Virus genome (UHGV): UHGV-0210832
Length of the DNA stretch: 40,024 bases
Direction: 5' to 3' (one strand)
Source of the DNA: a virus
Shown here: positions 7,188 through 35,215 of the stretch, piece after piece
Position numbering within the stretch: the first letter of the stretch is position 1
How the letters are laid out: every line of letters starts with the position of its first letter
Program-made: the position numbers and the translations under genes
Notes under the pieces: generated by a model
The model's database searches: none
What the model saw: only the letters and a program-made list of their open reading frames with translations
Told to the model about the DNA's origin: nothing

Positions 7188-7775
7188 TCAGAAAGGAGGG
7201 TAATCGTTCTGGCTGTAACCATAATCATCTGCATGATTCTGGCTTACGTTTTTAGAGCGATTGTCTTTATCTTTGAGGCTGGCAACCATGTTGGCGATAG
7301 CTTCTGGTTGCTTGCCTTCCGCCTTTTCTTTAAGGGTTTGACCTGTTTGTGCAATAAACGGGATGCGTATTTCCATCTGGTAGCTGTCTGCGCCAGTCTT
7401 TTTGTTTGTGGTTAATACTTTCTGGAGCACTAACCCGATTTTCTTTCCATGAAATTCAGGTGCAACAAATTTACTGGCGGAAACCATATGCTGCGTTAAT
7501 TGTCCAATCCCGGCACACCCCATCATGGCGTGAACGACATTTGCGCCAAATTTGTTTTCCGTTCCGTCATTTTTCTGAACACAGACGCTAAGATATTGGA
7601 TTTTACGTCCGTCGTCAGATTCGCCAGAAAACTCAATAAATTTGGCTCCTTTTTCTGATTGCTTTAGTTCTGCTTCAGTAATGGTAATGATATGAGCACC
7701 AGTTTCGTTAATAAAACCACCTTGCCCTGCGGTCAGTGCTGCTTCTTCGTTATAAGTAAAAATCACGTTGCTCAT
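7188..7775 (-). CDS. Sak4-associated ssDNA-binding-like protein (DUF669-like)
   Basis: 195 aa, translationally coupled to the upstream RecA-like ATPase. Family assignment is from memory of Sak4 modules and not verified. Confidence 0.45.
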   Translation of the reverse strand: MSNVIFTYNEEAALTAGQGGFINETGAHIITITEAELKQSEKGAKFIEFSGESDDGRKIQYLSVCVQKNDGTENKFGANVVHAMMGCAGIGQLTQHMVSASKFVAPEFHGKKIGLVLQKVLTTNKKTGADSYQMEIRIPFIAQTGQTLKEKAEGKQPEAIANMVASLKDKDNRSKNVSQNHADDYGYSQNDYPPF

Positions 7776-8452
7776 GCGGCGTTTTCCTTAATTTGATGAA
7801 CATTATTGATGCCGTAGTAATCACAAACAGTGGCATCGACGAAAGAGAGATCGTTATCAATCTCATTGGAATCAAACATTCCCATTGGGGATTTAACAGT
7901 GTCTGCACCGTTGTTTTTTGTGGTGAAAAAGAACTGGTCATCACGGGTAAGGGTGCGAAGAACTATAGTAAACATGCCTTCGACAGTGATTTTCTCGTCC
8001 AGCATTTTGCCGATAGTCTTCATTTTCACACGCCCCATAGGAGTTTCTTCGGTGTGCGCAAGAAAATAGACTCTCAGATCATCAGGCGCATCCTGCGCAG
8101 CCTTAATGACCTCCCATGCGTGGCGGCCTATCTCAGTAAACTTATCAAACGATTTTTCTTCTGAGCGGCGCATAAACTCATTGCTCATCACATACTGGAA
8201 GTCATCAACAATAACGATTCTTTTTCCGTATTCGTGAGCACGCTTAATTACAGCAACTATTACGTCCCATTTGTCAGTGGTAACTACGGTTCCTTTTTTT
8301 GCTCTGGCATCCCACGCCAGCCATTCTTTTGATTTAAATGGTAGCGGCTTGCCTATTGGTTTTATAAGTATTGCTTCCTCTGGGTTGATATTTCTCATAC
8401 TGGTTGATTTTCCGGTGCCAGATTCACCGAGTATTAATGTTGCAGTTCCCAT
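7772..8452 (-). CDS. Sak4-like RecA-fold ATPase (core-only recombinase)
   Basis: 226 aa; Walker A GESGTGKS near the N-terminus and Walker B-like RIVIVDD; size and motifs fit Sak4-type phage recombinases. Confidence 0.65.
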   Translation of the reverse strand: MGTATLILGESGTGKSTSMRNINPEEAILIKPIGKPLPFKSKEWLAWDARAKKGTVVTTDKWDVIVAVIKRAHEYGKRIVIVDDFQYVMSNEFMRRSEEKSFDKFTEIGRHAWEVIKAAQDAPDDLRVYFLAHTEETPMGRVKMKTIGKMLDEKITVEGMFTIVLRTLTRDDQFFFTTKNNGADTVKSPMGMFDSNEIDNDLSFVDATVCDYYGINNVHQIKENAA

Positions 8453-8460
8453 AATTCACC

Positions 8461-8649
8461 TCAGAATGGTAATTCGGATGGGGAGGAAAGAAACTCGCGC
8501 TCATTCATGCGCTCTCTTTGTGCCTGCCATAAACAAAGTTGTTTCTTTGATTTATCTCCCGCTTTACGCCAGTAACGAGCCTCAGCAATGTGATATTCTC
8601 TTTTTAATCGACTTAACTCTGGAGTTTTCGCCAGTTCTACCGGAATCAT
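8461..8649 (-). CDS. Hypothetical small protein (62 aa)
   Basis: Start at MIPVELAK (ATG 8649-8647) with GGAGG upstream; ATGA overlap with the kil stop. Confidence 0.4.
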   Translation of the reverse strand: MIPVELAKTPELSRLKREYHIAEARYWRKAGDKSKKQLCLWQAQRERMNEREFLSSPSELPF

Positions 8650-8759
8650 TTTGACCTCCATTTCCTGTAGGCTTCGACGGCCTCACGAAACATCTTTTCA
8701 TCGCCAATAAAAGTGGCGATAGTGAATTTAGTCTGGATAGCCATAAGTGTTTTATCCAT
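8646..8759 (-). CDS. kil: Kil-like host-killing protein (37 aa)
   Basis: MDKTLMAIQTKFTIATFIGDEKMFREAVEAYRKWRSK resembles my recollection of the lambda Kil N-terminus. The ATG overlaps the cIII stop; the longer track ORF is an upstream extension. Confidence 0.6.
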   Translation of the reverse strand: MDKTLMAIQTKFTIATFIGDEKMFREAVEAYRKWRSK

Positions 8760-8892
8760 TTTTGGGAACTCCTGGCTGATTAAGTATGTCGATAAGGCGT
8801 TTCCATCCGTCACGTAATTTACGGGTGATTCGTTCAAGTAAAGATTCGGAAGGGCAGCCAGCAACAGGCCACCCTGCAATGGCATATTGCAT
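8752..8892 (-). CDS. cIII: CIII (FtsH inhibitor), 46 aa
   Basis: Not in the ORF track (under 60 aa). Manual translation from ATG 8892-8890 gives MQYAIAGWPVAGCPSESLLERITRKLRDGWKRLIDILNQPGVPKNG, matching lambda CIII as I recall it; AAGGAG RBS 7 nt upstream. Confidence 0.8.
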   Translation of the reverse strand: MQYAIAGWPVAGCPSESLLERITRKLRDGWKRLIDILNQPGVPKNG

Positions 8893-8964
8893 GGTGTGCT
8901 CCTTATTTATACATAACGAAAAACGCCTCGAGTGAAGCGTTATTGGTATGCGGTAACGCCGCGC

Positions 8965-9333
8965 TCAGGCGGCTTTGATAGTCATATCATCTGAATCAAA
9001 TATTCCTGATGTATCGATATCGGTAATTCTTATTCCTTCGCTACCATCCATTGGAGGCCATCCTTCCTGACCATTTCCATCATTCCAGTCGAACTCACAT
9101 ACAACACCATATGCATTTAAGTCTTTCGAAATTGCTATAAGCAGAGTATGTTGCGCCAGCATGATTAATACAGCATTTAATACAGAGCCGTGTTTATTGA
9201 GTCGGTATTCAGAGTCTGACCAGAAATTATTAATCTGGTGAAGTTTTTCCTCTGTCATTACGTCATGGTCGATTTCAATTTCTATTGATGCTTTCCAGTC
9301 GTAATCAATGATGTATTTTTTGATGTTTGACAT
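8965..9333 (-). CDS. Hypothetical acidic protein (122 aa)
   Basis: ORF with GAGGAT RBS upstream of ATG 9333; no recognisable domain. Confidence 0.5.
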   Translation of the reverse strand: MSNIKKYIIDYDWKASIEIEIDHDVMTEEKLHQINNFWSDSEYRLNKHGSVLNAVLIMLAQHTLLIAISKDLNAYGVVCEFDWNDGNGQEGWPPMDGSEGIRITDIDTSGIFDSDDMTIKAA

Positions 9334-9485
9334 CTATTCATATCCTCATAGATAAAAAATCGCCCTCACATTAGAGGGCAAAGAAGATTTCCAATAATCA
9401 GAACAAGTCGGCTCCTGTTTAGTTACGAGCGACATTGCTCCGTGTATTCACTCGTTGGAATGAATACACAGTGCTTATTCGCAGC

Positions 9486-9812
9486 CTACATAATTATTCC
9501 GGTTATTATTACCATTTCAATATCACTATCTTTCATAATGATTGGAGTTGAGTTATCAACTTTACTTTTACTCCATTTTCCTGCATCAGTTTTTACCACT
9601 CCACAATAAGAAAGCCAATCATCATCACAATGTTCTGGGTCGCTAATTCTAACAAGAACACGTGATAGTGCTTTTTCGATACTTTCATCACAATCAGCAT
9701 TTATGTAATTGCCGTGAGACAATTTCAAATCGTTAACCTCATCTTCATTGGCATCAAAAATATAGATTTCAGTCGACTCTGGAATATTTTCATAAACCAT
9801 TAAAATTTTCAT
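9486..9812 (-). CDS. Hypothetical protein (108 aa)
   Basis: ORF in the pL operon between N and cIII; no recognisable motif. Confidence 0.45.
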   Translation of the reverse strand: MKILMVYENIPESTEIYIFDANEDEVNDLKLSHGNYINADCDESIEKALSRVLVRISDPEHCDDDWLSYCGVVKTDAGKWSKSKVDNSTPIIMKDSDIEMVIITGIIM

Positions 9813-9866
9813 TTTTACCCCATATTGTTTATGCCAAAAAATAAAGGCCGACTATGCGGCCTGAAA

Positions 9867-10316
9867 TTACTTAACCAATGATGCTGCATATTCGATAAGG
9901 TAAAGCTTTGGGGCCAGCAAAATTTTTAACCATGTCATATTGGTTACTACAGCAATAATAAAGCTTACCCACAGAACAAAAACTGCAGCTAATGGTAAGA
10001 TTAGAAAACTAATCTCACCGTTACTTTCCCAAATCATAGTCGGTTTGTATTTAGTCTTCCCCTTCTCCCATAACCATCCTTCATTATCGAATATACCAAT
10101 TTCAACTTTTTGGTACTGTTTCTTCATAAACCAGAAAACCAGTGGGATTGTTAGAATGGCTATTAATGTTTTAATCAGGCTATCAACCATATTCCATAGC
10201 AGCAACTGATGAACAACATCAGGAATCTGTGCCTGGCTAAATGAAACAGCCGCATCTATTCCATTGCTGGCTTTTTGCAGTAGTTCTACGAGAATCTTGT
10301 TTGCTTGTTCTTCCAT
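9867..10316 (-). CDS. Hypothetical membrane protein (149 aa, about 2 predicted TM helices)
   Basis: Hydrophobic stretches LIKTLIAILTIPLVFWF and ISFLILPLAAVFVLWVSFIIAVV; AAGGTG RBS before ATG 10316. Confidence 0.5.
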   Translation of the reverse strand: MEEQANKILVELLQKASNGIDAAVSFSQAQIPDVVHQLLLWNMVDSLIKTLIAILTIPLVFWFMKKQYQKVEIGIFDNEGWLWEKGKTKYKPTMIWESNGEISFLILPLAAVFVLWVSFIIAVVTNMTWLKILLAPKLYLIEYAASLVK

Positions 10317-10461
10317 ATATCACCTTAAATAGTGGATTGCGGTAGTAAAGATTGTGCCTGTCTTTTTACCACATCAGGCTCGGTGGTTCTCGTGTACCCC
10401 TACAGCGAGAAATCGGATAAACTCTATTCACCCCTACAGAGAGAATGATGGAGATTCACCG

Positions 10462-11001
10462 ATGAGTAACTGGTGGCAGGAACTGTTACGTTTCTTCCTG
10501 CGTGGTCTTACGCTACAACAGTTAATTCATATGCTTATTATTTTAATTGCCTTGATAATAATCACCCCAGCATCAATTAAAGAGTGGGTAGATATAAGGA
10601 ACCCAGAAATACTTCCAGATCACTGGATGTATTACGCAATGCTTTTGTGTATCAGTTATGTTCTGAACAGGGTGATGGAGTTTATATTTCTGGCATCTTC
10701 AGACAGATATAAAAAATATCTCAGTAAGAGAGATGAGGCTAAAGTAATTGTGGAGACTGAGCGCCTGTTCAATTCTCTGAGTATTCAGGAAAAAGAGGTT
10801 TTAGCATTTGCTGTTATGGCAAATAACAAAATTGTACTTAAGCACGGCGATCCGGTCGCTTTATCTCTTATGAGAAAAGGCCTTCTCCATCGCTCAGGTG
10901 TGACTTACAGCGCGTCAGGTAAAGAGAAATTTGTTATACCTGACGTCTGGTTCCATGAGTGTTATATGCGCTTTGCTGGTAAAGCTGATGAGCTAATTTA
11001 G
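10462..11001 (+). CDS. sieB: Superinfection-exclusion SieB-like membrane protein
   Basis: Start set at MSNWWQELL (ATG 10462) with GGAGA RBS; N-terminal TM helix LIHMLIILIALIIITPASI. Sits between N and cIII on the opposite strand to pL, as I recall for sieB in lambda and P22. Confidence 0.4.
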   Translation: MSNWWQELLRFFLRGLTLQQLIHMLIILIALIIITPASIKEWVDIRNPEILPDHWMYYAMLLCISYVLNRVMEFIFLASSDRYKKYLSKRDEAKVIVETERLFNSLSIQEKEVLAFAVMANNKIVLKHGDPVALSLMRKGLLHRSGVTYSASGKEKFVIPDVWFHECYMRFAGKADELI

Positions 11002-11022
11002 TTCCTCGACGGCGGGGGATCG

Positions 11023-11229
11023 TCACCTCGCTGTCAGTTGTTTTGATTTCCGGTAGCCTGCCGCGTAAATGGCTACGTTTGGCAGGCAGCACGAACCACA
11101 TTCAACCTTCTTCCTATTCGCTCCTGCTAGCGAAACCACCATTGAAACACGGTCAATATTTTTACGTTTTGCTGTCGCCTCTTTGTGCTTACGAGCGCGT
11201 TCGAGTTTGCGAATCTCTCTTGCTTTCAC
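11023..11229 (-). CDS. N: N-like early antiterminator (P22 gene 24 type)
   Basis: 68 aa with GTG start and GGAGG RBS. C-terminal SLAGANRKKVECGSCCLPNVAIYAAGYRKSKQLTAR resembles my recollection of P22 gp24. First gene downstream of pL/nutL. Confidence 0.65.
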   Translation of the reverse strand: MKAREIRKLERARKHKEATAKRKNIDRVSMVVSLAGANRKKVECGSCCLPNVAIYAAGYRKSKQLTAR

Positions 11230-11724: not shown

Positions 11725-11910
11725 TTACAGAGCAAAGAGATCACGCATTAGGTTGCTGTTCATCTGGTGGTTGAATTGATACGGCTCCAGTTCTTTTTTG
11801 ATCTCGTTCAGGTGCTGTTCCGCTTTTCTTGCCAGATTGCGACTTTCTTGGATCTGGCTTTCCAACATTTTGTTGAGAATTTCCATCTCCGGTTGCAGAT
11901 TCTTCGGCAT
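11725..11910 (-). CDS. Small predicted coiled-coil protein (61 aa) in the rex-equivalent locus
   Basis: AAAGAGGA RBS 8 nt before ATG 11910; codons in this frame are host-typical (CTG, CCG, AAC, GAG); the frame closes 14 codons upstream of the ATG. Confidence 0.5.
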   Translation of the reverse strand: MPKNLQPEMEILNKMLESQIQESRNLARKAEQHLNEIKKELEPYQFNHQMNSNLMRDLFAL

Positions 11911-12745
11911 TAGTATTGTCCTCTTTATCTTGTGTAGTAAGAGGGAAATCCATCACCCTTGGTTTTCCAAACGTTGGGATTTCACCACTATGAATCTTAT
12001 CACAGAAAAAATTATCGAGTATTTCTGTTATACCTTTAGGACATTCAACACACTTGAAAAGTTCCTTGGCTTCTTTTCTGTCGATAACAAATCCATGTGA
12101 AGGATACGAAGCGATGAGTTTGCTTAACGCCCCTTCTTTTAGACTACTTGGCTTGTCTGCTAACCGTTGACCATAAGTGATAGCAATGCTCATCGCACGC
12201 TGATGCTCACCAAGTTTTATTGGATCTATCTGAGCAGCCATGGGGGCTATCAATGCCTCTGTAAGTCTGGTTGCGATGTCAGCAGATATTTTAGTGCTTA
12301 TCTGGTTTTCGTATTTTATCTGAACAAGGTATGAGTTAAACGCTGAAATAGAGCGCTCCTTCAGTGCATCGAGAGCTGTCATAATGGCTAAACCAGAACT
12401 CATCTCACCTATTTCATCGTTTTTTTTCAGTTGGATATCTAATGGCCCGAGCTCACCCATGTCACCGATAACAAGTTTATTCGCAGCTATGGCTATTAGT
12501 GTACCAGCACTTTTGCACGGCCCAACAACTAAAAGTGTTACCGTTTCATAATAGTGCTGGAGAGCCCTACCTATACGATAACCAGCATTAGGATCACCGC
12601 CATAAGTAGCAACACAGAAGATAACATTCTTTTTTAATTCATTTTGTGACTTACGCTTCTTGATTTTATTGGTTAGATCAAGATAACCATCACGATGAAT
12701 ATCGCCTATATACACATAAACATCATTATTTTCAATAGTATTCAT
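11741..12745 (-). CDS. ClpP/crotonase-fold (S49/SDH-like) serine-protease-domain protein in the rexAB-equivalent position
   Basis: 334 aa; GGGAG RBS before ATG 12745. N-terminal ~130 aa align by eye to ClpP: VATYGGDPNAGYRIG against YINSPGGVITAG and VVGPCKSAGTLIAIAANK against CMGQAASMGAFLLTAG (putative nucleophile Ser in KSAG). The last ~56 codons overlap the 61-aa ORF in another frame and use rare codons. Confidence 0.55.
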   Translation of the reverse strand: MNTIENNDVYVYIGDIHRDGYLDLTNKIKKRKSQNELKKNVIFCVATYGGDPNAGYRIGRALQHYYETVTLLVVGPCKSAGTLIAIAANKLVIGDMGELGPLDIQLKKNDEIGEMSSGLAIMTALDALKERSISAFNSYLVQIKYENQISTKISADIATRLTEALIAPMAAQIDPIKLGEHQRAMSIAITYGQRLADKPSSLKEGALSKLIASYPSHGFVIDRKEAKELFKCVECPKGITEILDNFFCDKIHSGEIPTFGKPRVMDFPLTTQDKEDNTNAEESATGDGNSQQNVGKPDPRKSQSGKKSGTAPERDQKRTGAVSIQPPDEQQPNA

Positions 12746-12888: not shown

Positions 12889-13596
12889 TTACCAGCTATG
12901 TGATGACCAGAATACTCTACCAATAATCCTTACTGTTTCATGAAACTCATCTCTATCCATTACTTCATCAGGGTACTCTTCGCGATTTATTGATCTGATT
13001 ATCACCGATGTTGGGGTGGCGATTAATGTTTTTACTCGTAACAAATCAGACTGGCAAATAGCGTAGGTTTTACCATCTCTGATTGTGGTATCTTGTGTGT
13101 TAACGCCAACAACATCTCCGTCGTGAAGCGTTGGTTCCATGCTTTGCCCTACAACCCTAACTAGCTTGGCTGATCTTTCAGATACCCCCATCTTTTTCAG
13201 ATAGTACTTTCTGAAAACCAAAGAGAACTCTGATGATTCCTCTAGCTCGCAGCTACCGCTTCCAGCTGAAAGCGAAACGTTAAGAAGAGGCAACGCGACA
13301 AACTCGTCATCGTTTCTTTTAATATCTTCCCATACCACAGCTTTTAAAGATGATTCACGGACATTGGATGGTTCTTCATGTGTACCATCCCTCATTTCAC
13401 CAATACCAGAGCTAAGCCATTCAGGGCGTACTTTTAAAGCATTGGCTAATTCAACCATCTTGCGAGATCCGTTTGTTTTACCGGATGACATCTTCTGTAT
13501 GGCTGGCTGAGATATTCCAACCATGTCAGCAAGCTGTGATTGCGATACGCCTGCTGAGCTCATGGCTGCATTTAGTCTTTCTGCGAATGTTTTCAT
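12889..13596 (-). CDS. cI: CI-type prophage repressor (HTH plus LexA/S24-like autocleavage domain)
   Basis: Start set at MKTFAERLN (ATG 13596) because the longer track ORF would run into the OR3 operator. HTH region QSQLADMVGISQPAIQKMSSG; C-terminal GQSMEPTLHDGDVV fits the S24 peptidase Ser region. Confidence 0.8.
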   Translation of the reverse strand: MKTFAERLNAAMSSAGVSQSQLADMVGISQPAIQKMSSGKTNGSRKMVELANALKVRPEWLSSGIGEMRDGTHEEPSNVRESSLKAVVWEDIKRNDDEFVALPLLNVSLSAGSGSCELEESSEFSLVFRKYYLKKMGVSERSAKLVRVVGQSMEPTLHDGDVVGVNTQDTTIRDGKTYAICQSDLLRVKTLIATPTSVIIRSINREEYPDEVMDRDEFHETVRIIGRVFWSSHSW

Positions 13597-13608
13597 ACCC
13601 ACAAATCT

Positions 13609-13671
13609 ATAACTACGGTTATCCAAAGTAAAATAACAAAGGTTATTGCTATTTTTTATAACTTGAGTTAT
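13609..13671. promoter_or_regulatory. OR operators (three ATAACnnnnGTTAT palindromes) with embedded divergent pRM/pR
   Basis: ATAACTACGGTTAT (13609-13622), ATAACAAAGGTTAT (13633-13646) and ATAACTTGAGTTAT (13658-13671), spaced about 24-25 bp, between divergent cI and cro. Confidence 0.7.
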
Positions 13672-33189: not shown

Positions 33190-33856
33190 CGAAAGCTTCA
33201 AGAATAAATTGCTTCCCATGAATGGGTATATGAAAGGCGGCAGCGACTCCGGCTCTAAAGCCCAGGCACGCGCAACTGAAAAGGGTATCGAATTGCAGCG
33301 TGAAATGTGGCAAACGAACATGCAGAACCTTGCACCGTTCACGCCACTCGCTCAGCAGTACGTATCAGAGTTGCAAAATCTTTCCTCTCTTCAGGGGCAA
33401 GGTCAGGCGCTTAACCAGTATTACAACTCCCAGCAGTATAAAGACCTTGCAGGGCAGGCGCGCTATCAGAGTCTGGCAGCAGCAGAGGCAACGGGTGGAT
33501 TAGGCTCTACAGCAACAGGAAACCAGTTAGCAGCAATCGCACCTACACTCGGCCAAAACTGGCTGTCAGGTCAGATGAACAACTACAACAATCTGGCAAA
33601 TATCGGCCTTGGTGCTCTTACAGGTCAGGCAAACGCCGGGCAGAACTACGCTAACAACGTCAGCCAGTTGTATCAACAGCAGGCGGCGGCAGCGGCAGCA
33701 AATGCCAATAAGCCTTCAGGCCTACAGAGTTTTGCTACAGGTGCCATTGGTGGGGCCGCATCAGGTGCAATGATTGGTAGTGCAGTTCCTGTTATTGGGA
33801 CTGGTATTGGTGCTCTTGCTGGCGGTGTTATCGGTGGTCTTGGATCATTGTTTTAA
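33176..33856 (+). CDS. Ejection (DNA transfer) protein, P22 gp7-like
   Basis: 226 aa; Gly/Ala-rich hydrophobic C-terminus (IGGAASGAMIGSAVPVIGTGIGALAGGVIGGLGSLF); synteny. Confidence 0.6.
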   Translation: MLVLSESFKNKLLPMNGYMKGGSDSGSKAQARATEKGIELQREMWQTNMQNLAPFTPLAQQYVSELQNLSSLQGQGQALNQYYNSQQYKDLAGQARYQSLAAAEATGGLGSTATGNQLAAIAPTLGQNWLSGQMNNYNNLANIGLGALTGQANAGQNYANNVSQLYQQQAAAAAANANKPSGLQSFATGAIGGAASGAMIGSAVPVIGTGIGALAGGVIGGLGSLF

Positions 33857-33865
33857 GGTGGGAAT

Positions 33866-35215
33866 ATGGCTACTTGGCAACAAGGAATCAACTCAGGCGG
33901 TTTTCTTGCTGGTATCGGTGGGCAAAACTCAAATGCGCCAAAGGCAAGTGATGTAAGTGAGGCGTTGGCCTATATTCGCCAGAACAACGAAATGGAGCGA
34001 TCAGGTCGCAATAACATCGGCCTTCAGGCGTTGCAGGGGCTGGGTAGTGTCGCTCAAACATATCAAGCCGCAAAGCAACAGGAAGCGGATGCTGCATTCC
34101 AAAAAGAATATGCGGCAGCCATCCAGTCAGGTGATCGACAGCAGGTGCGAGATCTGATGACCAAATATCCTGGTCAATTAGAGAAGATTCAGTCTGGTAT
34201 GAAGTGGGCAGACGAAGACCAGCGTGATGAAATTGGCAATCTAGCGGCAGGCGGTCAAATTGCCTCCATGATGGGTGGTGATGCATTTAGCAAGTGGATT
34301 GGAAACAATGCAACCAGATTGTCTAATCAGGGGGTAGACCCACAACAACTCCTCAGCATGTATCAAAAAGACCCACAAGCAACATCACAACTTATCGGAC
34401 AATATGGTCAGTTTGCATTAGGACATGAAAAGTATTGGGATTTGCAGGACAAGATGGTTGGTCGCCAACTTGAGAAAGGGCGATTGGATGAAAGCATCCG
34501 TCAGGCTGACATGGAGAACGCGAGAGGATGGGCAAATATCCAAAACGCTCAACTAGACAGGGCTCAGCGGGCACAAATGCATAATGATAACGTAGCCCTG
34601 AAGTTGCAGGAATTAGGGATGAAACAACAGGAAAGCGGAAAGATTGACCCAAAACTTGTTCGAGATCTGAATAGTGATATTAATGGGTTCTCAAAGAATT
34701 ATTCTGCAATGCGCAGTGCTTCTGACAACCTACAAGCCCTTGGGAAGCGCAACACTCCAGCATCGCAGTTGGGAATGATTTTCAACTATATGAAATCGCT
34801 GGATCCGCAATCTGTGGTACGCGAAGGTGAGCAAGTGCAGGTAAAACGCACTGATGGAATATTTGGCACACTTGGTAACTATGTTAGCCAATTATCTAAC
34901 GGCAAGATGCTGAATAATGAGCAAGTCCAAGACTTAATCAACACCTCAAAACTGATGGCAAATACTGAAGGCGAAAAGTTTAACCAGCAAATGGATGATT
35001 ATCTTTCAACTTATGGAGATTCTCTCCCCAGCGGACTAACTAAGCAATTGCAATCCAGAAAAGCCAAGCTGTATGAAGATATTCAGCAGCCTGCGCAACA
35101 ACAGACACAACAAGCAACATCTGGCGGTCAAACATTTCGAGAAGGTATGACCGCGAAAAATCCTAAAACTGGTCAGAAAATTATTTACAGGAACGGACAA
35201 TGGCAACCAATGTAG
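33866..35215 (+). CDS. Ejection (DNA transfer) protein, P22 gp20-like
   Basis: 449 aa; synteny and size. Confidence 0.6.
   Translation: MATWQQGINSGGFLAGIGGQNSNAPKASDVSEALAYIRQNNEMERSGRNNIGLQALQGLGSVAQTYQAAKQQEADAAFQKEYAAAIQSGDRQQVRDLMTKYPGQLEKIQSGMKWADEDQRDEIGNLAAGGQIASMMGGDAFSKWIGNNATRLSNQGVDPQQLLSMYQKDPQATSQLIGQYGQFALGHEKYWDLQDKMVGRQLEKGRLDESIRQADMENARGWANIQNAQLDRAQRAQMHNDNVALKLQELGMKQQESGKIDPKLVRDLNSDINGFSKNYSAMRSASDNLQALGKRNTPASQLGMIFNYMKSLDPQSVVREGEQVQVKRTDGIFGTLGNYVSQLSNGKMLNNEQVQDLINTSKLMANTEGEKFNQQMDDYLSTYGDSLPSGLTKQLQSRKAKLYEDIQQPAQQQTQQATSGGQTFREGMTAKNPKTGQKIIYRNGQWQPM

Follow-up and report, generated by a model that had tools for sequence, protein, structure and literature searches.

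We analyzed the interval between the genes for cIII and the antiterminator N (positions 8,965 to 11,001) in the virus genome UHGV-0210832, a stretch of 40,024 nucleotides hereafter denoted the window. The interval belongs to a lambdoid prophage, in which it makes up the N-proximal segment of the early leftward (pL) operon; the window as a whole encodes a CI-like repressor, a Sak4-like annealing protein, SSB and P22-like late genes. The anatomy of this segment is settled: it is a mosaic in which the slot of the ral gene holds two unrelated, independently assorting accessory genes, one for an acidic protein of 108 amino acids (aa) and the other for a membrane protein of 149 aa with two transmembrane (TM) segments. 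The explanation of the locus that we consider the best, and to which we would give an even chance, is that this mosaic segment carries early accessory effectors that act independently of each other. An earlier, sequence-only reading of the same DNA had described a cluster of three minus-strand unknowns next to a sieB-like gene and considered the unknowns to be candidate anti-defence or exclusion factors. The interval is less mysterious than that: only 9475-10304 is unusual, and ea10, sieB and PreS are already known elements. One member of the supposed cluster is ea10 of lambda, and the two remaining unknowns occur separately elsewhere. Thus, the earlier interpretation is only partly supported: its logic of the slot was right, yet it misjudged two of the four genes, and the analysis revealed no functional link.

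A foreign cassette in a mosaic pL segment

The genes and main elements of the segment are as follows (position, strand, feature).

8752-8892, minus: cIII, pL operon (Pfam Lambda_CIII, 9e-31)
8965-9333, minus: open reading frame (ORF) of 122 aa, ea10
9352-9440, minus: PreS (LPR1) small-RNA locus, 5' end placed from the size of about 88 nucleotides in lambda
9475-10304, no strand assigned: replacement cassette of 830 bp without a lambda match, in place of lambda 34046-34345
9486-9812, minus: ORF of 108 aa, acidic alpha/beta protein, phrog_4658
9867-10316, minus: ORF of 149 aa, two-TM membrane protein, phrog_3054, Sf6 gene 34-like
10354-11001, plus: long ORF, 215 aa from a GTG, containing sieB
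10462-11001, plus: sieB, P22 type, 179 aa (Pfam, PHROG and identity to P22)
11023-11229, minus: antiterminator N (Pfam N_peptide, 6e-16; phrog_271)

All four ORFs that the sequence-only reading had placed between N and cIII, the 122-aa one among them, were found at these positions. Comparison by blastn aligns window 8657-9474 with lambda 33228-34045 (97% identity) and window 10305-10439 with lambda 34346-34480 (95%), with no lambda match for window 9475-10304. These flanking blocks with a gap between them imply that 830 bp substitute for 300 bp of lambda containing ral and most of orf28; a Pfam scan of the ORFs in 8965-11001 gave no match to the Ral family (PF11058), and lambda 34046-34345 has no counterpart in the window. 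The fraction of guanine and cytosine (GC) is 0.34-0.35 in the cassette compared to about 0.44 in the flanks. The right junction consists of the ribosome-binding site and first codons (AAGGTGATATATGGAAGAA) that are common to lambda orf28, gene 34 of Shigella phage Sf6 and the 149-aa gene; the left-hand one is where the PreS region starts, annotated in Sf6 as a "boundary sequence". The ral/orf28 slot is thus filled by a foreign, low-GC cassette inserted between junctions common to lambdoid phages, a textbook case of cassette exchange. We also considered the possibility that lambda orf28 is a remnant of the membrane protein gene; this was ruled out given that the two genes have only the ribosome-binding site and the first three codons in common and their products are unrelated.

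The gene order and strands of the window are those of the lambda segment N-sieB-ral/orf28-PreS(tL2a)-ea10-cIII (NC_001416, 33299-35438), and the lambda annotation, with ea10, ral/orf28 and sieB in this interval, agrees with the earlier description. The kil, cIII, ea10 and PreS/tL2a elements are of the lambda type, 97-98% identical, and the identity is 95-97% in the PreS/tL2a region and the junction upstream of sieB. In contrast to lambda, the window lacks ral and orf28, with the two unrelated genes of the cassette in their stead; its SieB is of the P22 type; and its N protein, 68 aa in length, has a different N-terminal arginine-rich segment. Phage P22 (24-sieB/esc-ral-orf78-orf87-17-c3, NC_002371) shows the same architecture. 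Its slot is annotated as containing ral, orf78, orf87, gene 17 ("allows growth on phage Fels2 lysogen") and sieB/esc, and carries counter-defence functions (ral and gene 17), but neither the 108-aa nor the membrane protein of the window shows detectable similarity to Ral, Orf78, Orf87 or gp17 (blastp, and hhalign for the 108-aa family against gp17). That the N-cIII interval varies among lambdoid phages, as had been maintained, is evident from its mosaic makeup in comparison with lambda and other alleles.

The plus-strand gene is a true sieB of the P22 type with a conserved internal esc start, so that the earlier "sieB-like" designation holds whereas the 215-aa extent does not. The protein matches Pfam SieB (PF14163; 5e-20, 72 bits against a cut-off of 26) and phrog_1301 (4e-94). 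Neither match extends upstream of residue 37 in the ORF that opens with the GTG at 10354; that ORF is therefore over-extended, and the protein of 179 aa starts at the ATG at 10462. This SieB is 49% identical to P22 SieB, lambda SieB yields no blastp match to it, and its internal Met24 (codon at 10531) aligns with Met25 of P22, the esc start in that phage. The C-terminal part of N is of the P22 type as well. In its short form (68 aa, GTG start, upstream ribosome-binding site GGAGG), the C-terminal 48 residues are 65% identical to P22 gp24; the first 20 residues are instead a different segment rich in arginine and lysine, KAREIRKLERARKHKEATAKRK, suggestive of a distinct boxB specificity.

The 122-aa protein, said earlier to lack recognised domains, contains Pfam DUF2528 (PF10800; 159 bits against a cut-off of 22, 5e-47), matches phrog_646 (1.5e-70) and is 98% identical to lambda Ea10 over 122 aa in the same place between cIII and the tL2a region; it is Ea10, a known lambda gene product without an assigned function in lambda. 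A PDB sequence search found no solved structure for Ea10, and in the literature DUF2528 was mentioned only in one essentiality screen. The absence of a recognised functional family does hold for the 108-aa and 149-aa proteins.

The non-coding content of the segment, namely the PreS/tL2a small-RNA locus and three intrinsic terminators, was absent from the sequence-only reading. A scan for terminators detected seven terminator-like hairpins where 1.9 were expected; those in and around the segment, along with the cIII element, are the following.

8847-8905, minus: lambda cIII thermoregulator RNA at the cIII start (Rfam RF01804, 88.5 bits against a gathering score of 50, E=1.6e-21)
8922-8941, minus: intrinsic terminator-like hairpin 3' of ea10, inside the block 97% identical to lambda (terminator scan)
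9360-9381, minus: stem of terminator tL2a, 3' end of PreS (terminator scan)
9845-9862, minus: intrinsic terminator-like hairpin directly 3' of the 149-aa gene, AGGCCGCATAGTCGGCCT then TTATTTTTT, with a T-run
11008-11035, plus: terminator-like hairpin 3' of sieB (terminator scan)

LPR1/PreS is an Hfq-dependent RNA of about 88 nucleotides that is located between ea10 and ral, has its 3' end at tL2a and up-regulates the host gene dnaN (bioRxiv 10.1101/2024.10.31.621285). Of the 152-bp spacer that separates ea10 from the 108-aa gene, the ea10-proximal 140 bp or so are near-identical to lambda, with two substitutions, both in the loop of the terminator hairpin; the same stretch is annotated in Sf6 as "bsq4 boundary sequence" and tL2A. 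An apparently intact copy of lambda PreS/LPR1 with tL2a is therefore present at 9352-9440, an interval in which the Rfam scan gave no match, and the PreS region doubles as the left recombination junction of the cassette.

The two protein families of the cassette

The 108-aa and 149-aa ORFs are real genes rather than chance frames, as indicated by homologues at 25-40% identity and the ratio of nonsynonymous to synonymous substitution rates (dN/dS) for the former and by 475 homologous clusters for the latter. Both reading frames are intact and preceded by ribosome-binding sites.

The 108-aa protein matches phrog_4658 over residues 1-108 (4.7e-39). It is strongly acidic (isoelectric point (pI) 4.3, net charge about -12); the acidity noted earlier for this protein and the 122-aa one is confirmed by the values calculated for the two (pI 4.3-4.4, net charge -12 to -13). 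The AlphaFold 2 (AF2) model of the protein is confident, with a predicted local distance difference test score (pLDDT) of 94.7, and the PDB holds no relative by sequence, profile or fold, including the solved anti-defence proteins Ocr, ArdA, Acb, Tad, Gad and similar. There was no match in Pfam or NCBIfam, and in PADLOC-DB only a chance-level one to DpdF (E=0.015).

Close relatives of this protein are rare. A first search of 5.8 billion proteins returned five clusters, the gene is present in 16 of 5,426 complete E. coli genomes, no relatives were detected in the GTDB representative genomes scanned, and a metagenome scan yielded seven loci; the exact protein is encoded on one metagenome contig with the same gene order as in the window. 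The family at large is broader: a profile search of 1.84 billion representatives recovered 785 members at E<=1e-3, and the best 150 of these 785 are all stand-alone proteins of 58-148 aa, mostly 80-140. The 69 remote relatives all match phrog_4658, and a Pfam scan of these 69 was empty. Full-length homologues with 25-40% identity are encoded in the early regions of virulent phages, namely the T4-like Pseudotevenvirus and relatives, Klebsiella Jedunavirus and Stephanstirmvirinae; in T4-like phages, the gene is located between ndd and the holin gene t. In Klebsiella phage vB_KpM_FBKp34 (Stephanstirmvirinae), the homologue (2501-2833) lies among tellurite-resistance-type genes, with TerC upstream, and a vWA/TerF-like gene and two TerD genes downstream.

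The conserved residues of the family (in full-length numbering) are P11, E12, K30, H33, Y36, N38 and G105. The H, N and G residues are invariant in an alignment of 34 sequences; in the wider set of 69 sequences, only G105 is invariant, and P11 and N38 nearly so. The dN/dS of the gene is 0.07-0.09 at a synonymous divergence (dS) of about 1.3, and the gene appears to be subject to purifying selection.

In every lambdoid prophage context seen, the 108-aa homologue follows N or ral and immediately precedes the PreS boundary, cIII or ea10, and its upstream neighbours are diverse.

EC6622: the TM gene
O25:NM: a 104-aa ORF
ETEC1738: Ral, with a P22 gp17-like gene downstream
ETEC1701: Nmad5 and Ral
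Logan contig: Ral and a 67-aa ORF
Metagenome contig: N and an 83-aa ORF

A more distant lambdoid element carries a 48%-identical copy in the same slot, and a 40%-identical homologue is found near a Mom-like gene. The likeness of the 108-aa protein to small acidic anti-restriction or DNA-mimic proteins (Ocr, ArdA, Arn, and Ral as a slot-mate) is one of size, charge and location alone. Like the proteins of the Ocr/ArdA/Arn type, it is small, acidic and presumably expressed early, with relatives in both virulent and temperate phages, but it has no sequence or fold similarity to any solved structure.

The 149-aa protein matches phrog_3054 over residues 1-149 (3.4e-59) and has at least 475 homologous clusters, all named "hypothetical"; the closest ones (99%) come from Escherichia albertii. 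Searches of Pfam, NCBIfam and PADLOC with this protein gave no match, the family has no sequence or profile relative in the PDB, and hhalign assigned the family probabilities of 0.6% for a relationship with P22 SieA and 0.2% for one with the SieB of the window. Members of phrog_3054 are distributed among phages, both temperate and virulent, that infect Escherichia, Salmonella, Klebsiella, Vibrio and Pseudomonas. The homologues include Sf6 gene 34 and proteins of many P22-like and lambda-like phages as well as, in early regions of virulent phages, phi92 gp220 and proteins of N4-like Schitoviridae (of Shigella, Salmonella and Vibrio) and of Pseudomonas phages. In the Vibrio myophage 115E34-1, the homologue is encoded by itself on the opposite strand, flanked by the genes for tail completion and head closure.

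Hydropathy agrees with the two TM helices proposed earlier (segments about 46-64 and about 106-124). From the N-terminus, the proteins of the family consist of an acidic helix (about 40 residues), TM1, a loop (8-40 residues), TM2 and, at the C-terminus, a conserved helix (WLKIWLAPKLYLIEYAASLVK-like). The termini of the 149-aa protein (about 1-45 and about 128-149) are conserved and surround an exchangeable TM1-loop-TM2 core, and the alleles of 121, 134, 140, 145 and 149 aa differ mainly in this core. At the DNA level, the 5' and 3' ends of the gene are 85-95% identical to the EC6622 and Sf6 alleles, and the middle (9934-10178) is without similarity; this is an intragenic cassette swap. The product of Sf6 gene 34, which belongs to the same family and occupies the same operon position, has near-identical N- and C-terminal segments, and the ribosome-binding site, the start and the downstream boundary sequence with tL2A are common to Sf6 and the window. 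By contrast, the central core of the Sf6 protein is unrelated (140 versus 149 aa, 48% identity overall), and Sf6 retains ral upstream and has neither the 108-aa gene nor sieB. In the HK633 allele, the acidic loop is only 8 residues long; this allele was translated from an intact matching frame where the record annotates two coding sequences. The loop is therefore not required. Such a short, acidic loop argues for a hairpin with both termini inside the cell and with the function residing in the conserved termini.

The two families assort independently. Sf6, Gally, HF4s, Stx2 phages and many E. coli genomes have the TM gene but not the 108-aa gene; conversely, the 108-aa gene is found without the TM gene beside Ral, Nmad5 and Ral, a 104-aa ORF, or N and an 83-aa ORF. 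A two-gene module was accordingly rejected: because each gene occurs without the other in other prophages and phages, they are not a functional unit, nor does either belong to a system that includes ea10 or sieB.

Expression and possible functions

The expression logic of lambda (pL promoter, N antitermination, internal terminators) is expected to apply to the window. Given their operon position and established lambda biology, both cassette genes would be transcribed early from pL, with N-modified RNA polymerase reading through the hairpins at 9845-9862, tL2a (9360-9381) and 8922-8941. Such read-through would confine expression to lytic growth or induction and leave the genes silent in the repressed lysogen. 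Furthermore, the presence of both families in the early regions of obligately virulent as well as temperate phages favours lytic roles (host takeover, counter-defence or exclusion) over lysogenic conversion.

Tentatively, the 108-aa protein could act early, in the cytoplasm, by binding or inactivating a host factor, perhaps a nucleic-acid-directed defence or another host protein as the most likely target, through a putative site formed by P11, E12, H33, Y36, N38 and G105. In several respects, it resembles the profile of anti-defence proteins: it is rare in E. coli prophages, resides in the Ral slot, is acidic, has conserved polar residues and occasionally has a DNA-modification or anti-restriction neighbour, and in some contexts the neighbours have counter-defence roles (Ral, the P22 gp17-like protein, Nmad5 and Mom-like proteins). 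A more specific proposal, which we regard as possible rather than probable, is that it founds a counter-defence family with a new fold, a small early effector common to T4-like phages, Jedunavirus, Stephanstirmvirinae and a few lambdoid prophages that would serve as an alternative or addition to Ral and neutralise restriction- or signalling-type immunity via the P11/E12/H33/Y36/N38/G105 pocket. The membrane protein, again tentatively, may be an inner-membrane hairpin with both termini in the cytoplasm, the terminal helices of which act on a conserved envelope-associated target; it could exclude superinfecting phages or neutralise a membrane-linked abortive-infection system, and both roles are possible.

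Several considerations weigh against the view of the two proteins as early effectors. Family, fold and profile searches (Pfam, NCBIfam, PADLOC, PHROGs, PDB and hhalign) tie neither protein to defence, anti-defence or exclusion, nor did they place either in a housekeeping family; no homologue of either has a tested function; the supplements of the accessory-gene screen of Silas et al. 2025 contain no match to peptide strings of either protein; and no paper naming these PHROG identifiers was found. The anti-restriction neighbours are not universal. Expression from pL was deduced from position, and the clustering of the conserved residues of the 108-aa protein at a single site from the order of secondary-structure elements. 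The TM topology derives from hydropathy and the positive-inside rule alone, and the AF2 model of the 149-aa protein is poor (pLDDT 62.6), too low for a fold search. On balance, the earlier label of "candidate anti-defence or exclusion" for these two proteins is a reasonable and plausible hypothesis.

The contiguity of the four genes in the window and on one metagenome contig, together with the presence of ral, sieB or gene 17 in this interval of model phages, could be taken to mean that the TM protein, the 108-aa protein, Ea10 and SieB make up one co-functioning anti-defence or exclusion cluster, as the earlier description implied. This seems very unlikely: each gene has other partners elsewhere, the segments differ in ancestry (lambda-type, P22-type and foreign low-GC), and sieB is on the opposite strand and has its own promoter in P22. 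It is at least as hard to believe that the two genes of the cassette are decaying or are mere passengers without a function, an explanation that we consider very improbable. Neither has an assigned function, and the 108-aa gene is rare in E. coli and was not seen in the GTDB representatives scanned, but the intact frames with ribosome-binding sites, the low dN/dS and confident fold prediction of the 108-aa protein, the breadth of the two families (at least 475 clusters for the TM protein and 785 representatives for the 108-aa protein) and the invariant residues all speak for function.

The nature of that function is harder to decide. The 108-aa protein might be a general host-takeover factor, for instance one that mimics DNA or inhibits a protein of the nucleoid or of transcription (such as H-NS or RNA polymerase), and not a counter-defence protein. 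Its strong acidity would fit, as would the location between ndd and t in T4-like phages, among takeover genes such as ndd, and the spread of the family over very different phage types suits a conserved host target. However, in lambdoid prophages the gene occupies a variable anti-restriction slot, its rarity (16 of 5,426 genomes) suits a strain-specific target better than a core one, and the invariant His, Asn, Tyr and Glu are more in line with a defined pocket than with the diffuse acidic surface of a mimic. Taken by itself, this proposal is a doubtful one, although a general takeover role and an anti-defence role of the protein appear about equally possible. Similarly, the membrane protein could be the product of a moron: expressed from the prophage, it would protect the lysogen by superinfection exclusion or abortive infection, like HK97 gp15, P22 SieA or T4 Imm. 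The gene has an intrinsic terminator of its own directly downstream (the hairpin at 9845-9862 with its T-run), is low in GC and adjoins sieB; the lone opposite-strand gene of Vibrio phage 115E34-1 is a typical moron arrangement; and the swapping of the TM1-loop-TM2 core between constant termini is expected if specificity is under diversifying pressure. Nevertheless, a moron-like nature seems rather unlikely. A consensus scan of the minus strand at 10317-10461 found no sigma-70-like promoter upstream, which leaves room for a weak or non-consensus one; the ribosome-binding site and start are common with lambda orf28 and the gene is inside the repressed pL operon; homologues belong to early operons of virulent N4-like and phi92-like phages; the HK633 loop has only 8 residues; and hhalign indicates no relation to SieA or SieB. 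A mosaic pL segment with mutually independent early effectors is the reading that we retain.

Neighbouring genes and biological implications

Outside the interval, several neighbours deserve mention. The minus-strand recombination module at 7188-8452 encodes a Sak4-like ATPase (226 aa, phrog_2872) and SSB (195 aa, phrog_743), and is neither lambda Red nor P22 Erf; a small 66-aa ORF of a "recombinase" family is located at 8461-8661. A 79-aa ORF at 8646-8885 (minus) overlaps cIII and matches the lambda Kil domain at residues 44-74 only, so that the real kil is probably a short ORF with an internal start, as in lambda. Between pL/N and the CI-like repressor gene (12889-13626), in the position of rexAB in lambda, lies a minus-strand gene (11741-12745) for a 334-aa protein of phrog_21683 (4e-172) that shows a weak likeness to serine proteases of the ClpP/SDH type (Pfam SDH_protease, 3.7e-6, below the cut-off) and gave no match in a PADLOC scan. 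This gene is a candidate for a prophage-expressed defence or lysogenic-conversion gene.

In lambdoid pL operons, small accessory genes, such as ral, P22 gene 17 and sieB/esc, are known to be exchanged in the stretch between N and cIII. The window presents a clean cassette swap at defined junction sequences and brings out two widespread, uncharacterised families of phage proteins. The 108-aa family, with no Pfam entry, a confident model, no fold relative in the PDB and a presence in both virulent and temperate phages, has the profile of many recently found anti-defence proteins. If neither protein is a counter-defence or exclusion factor, the locus is a case of ordinary lambdoid mosaicism. Should either one prove to be such a factor, it would represent a new family, and the slot would be worth mining for more.

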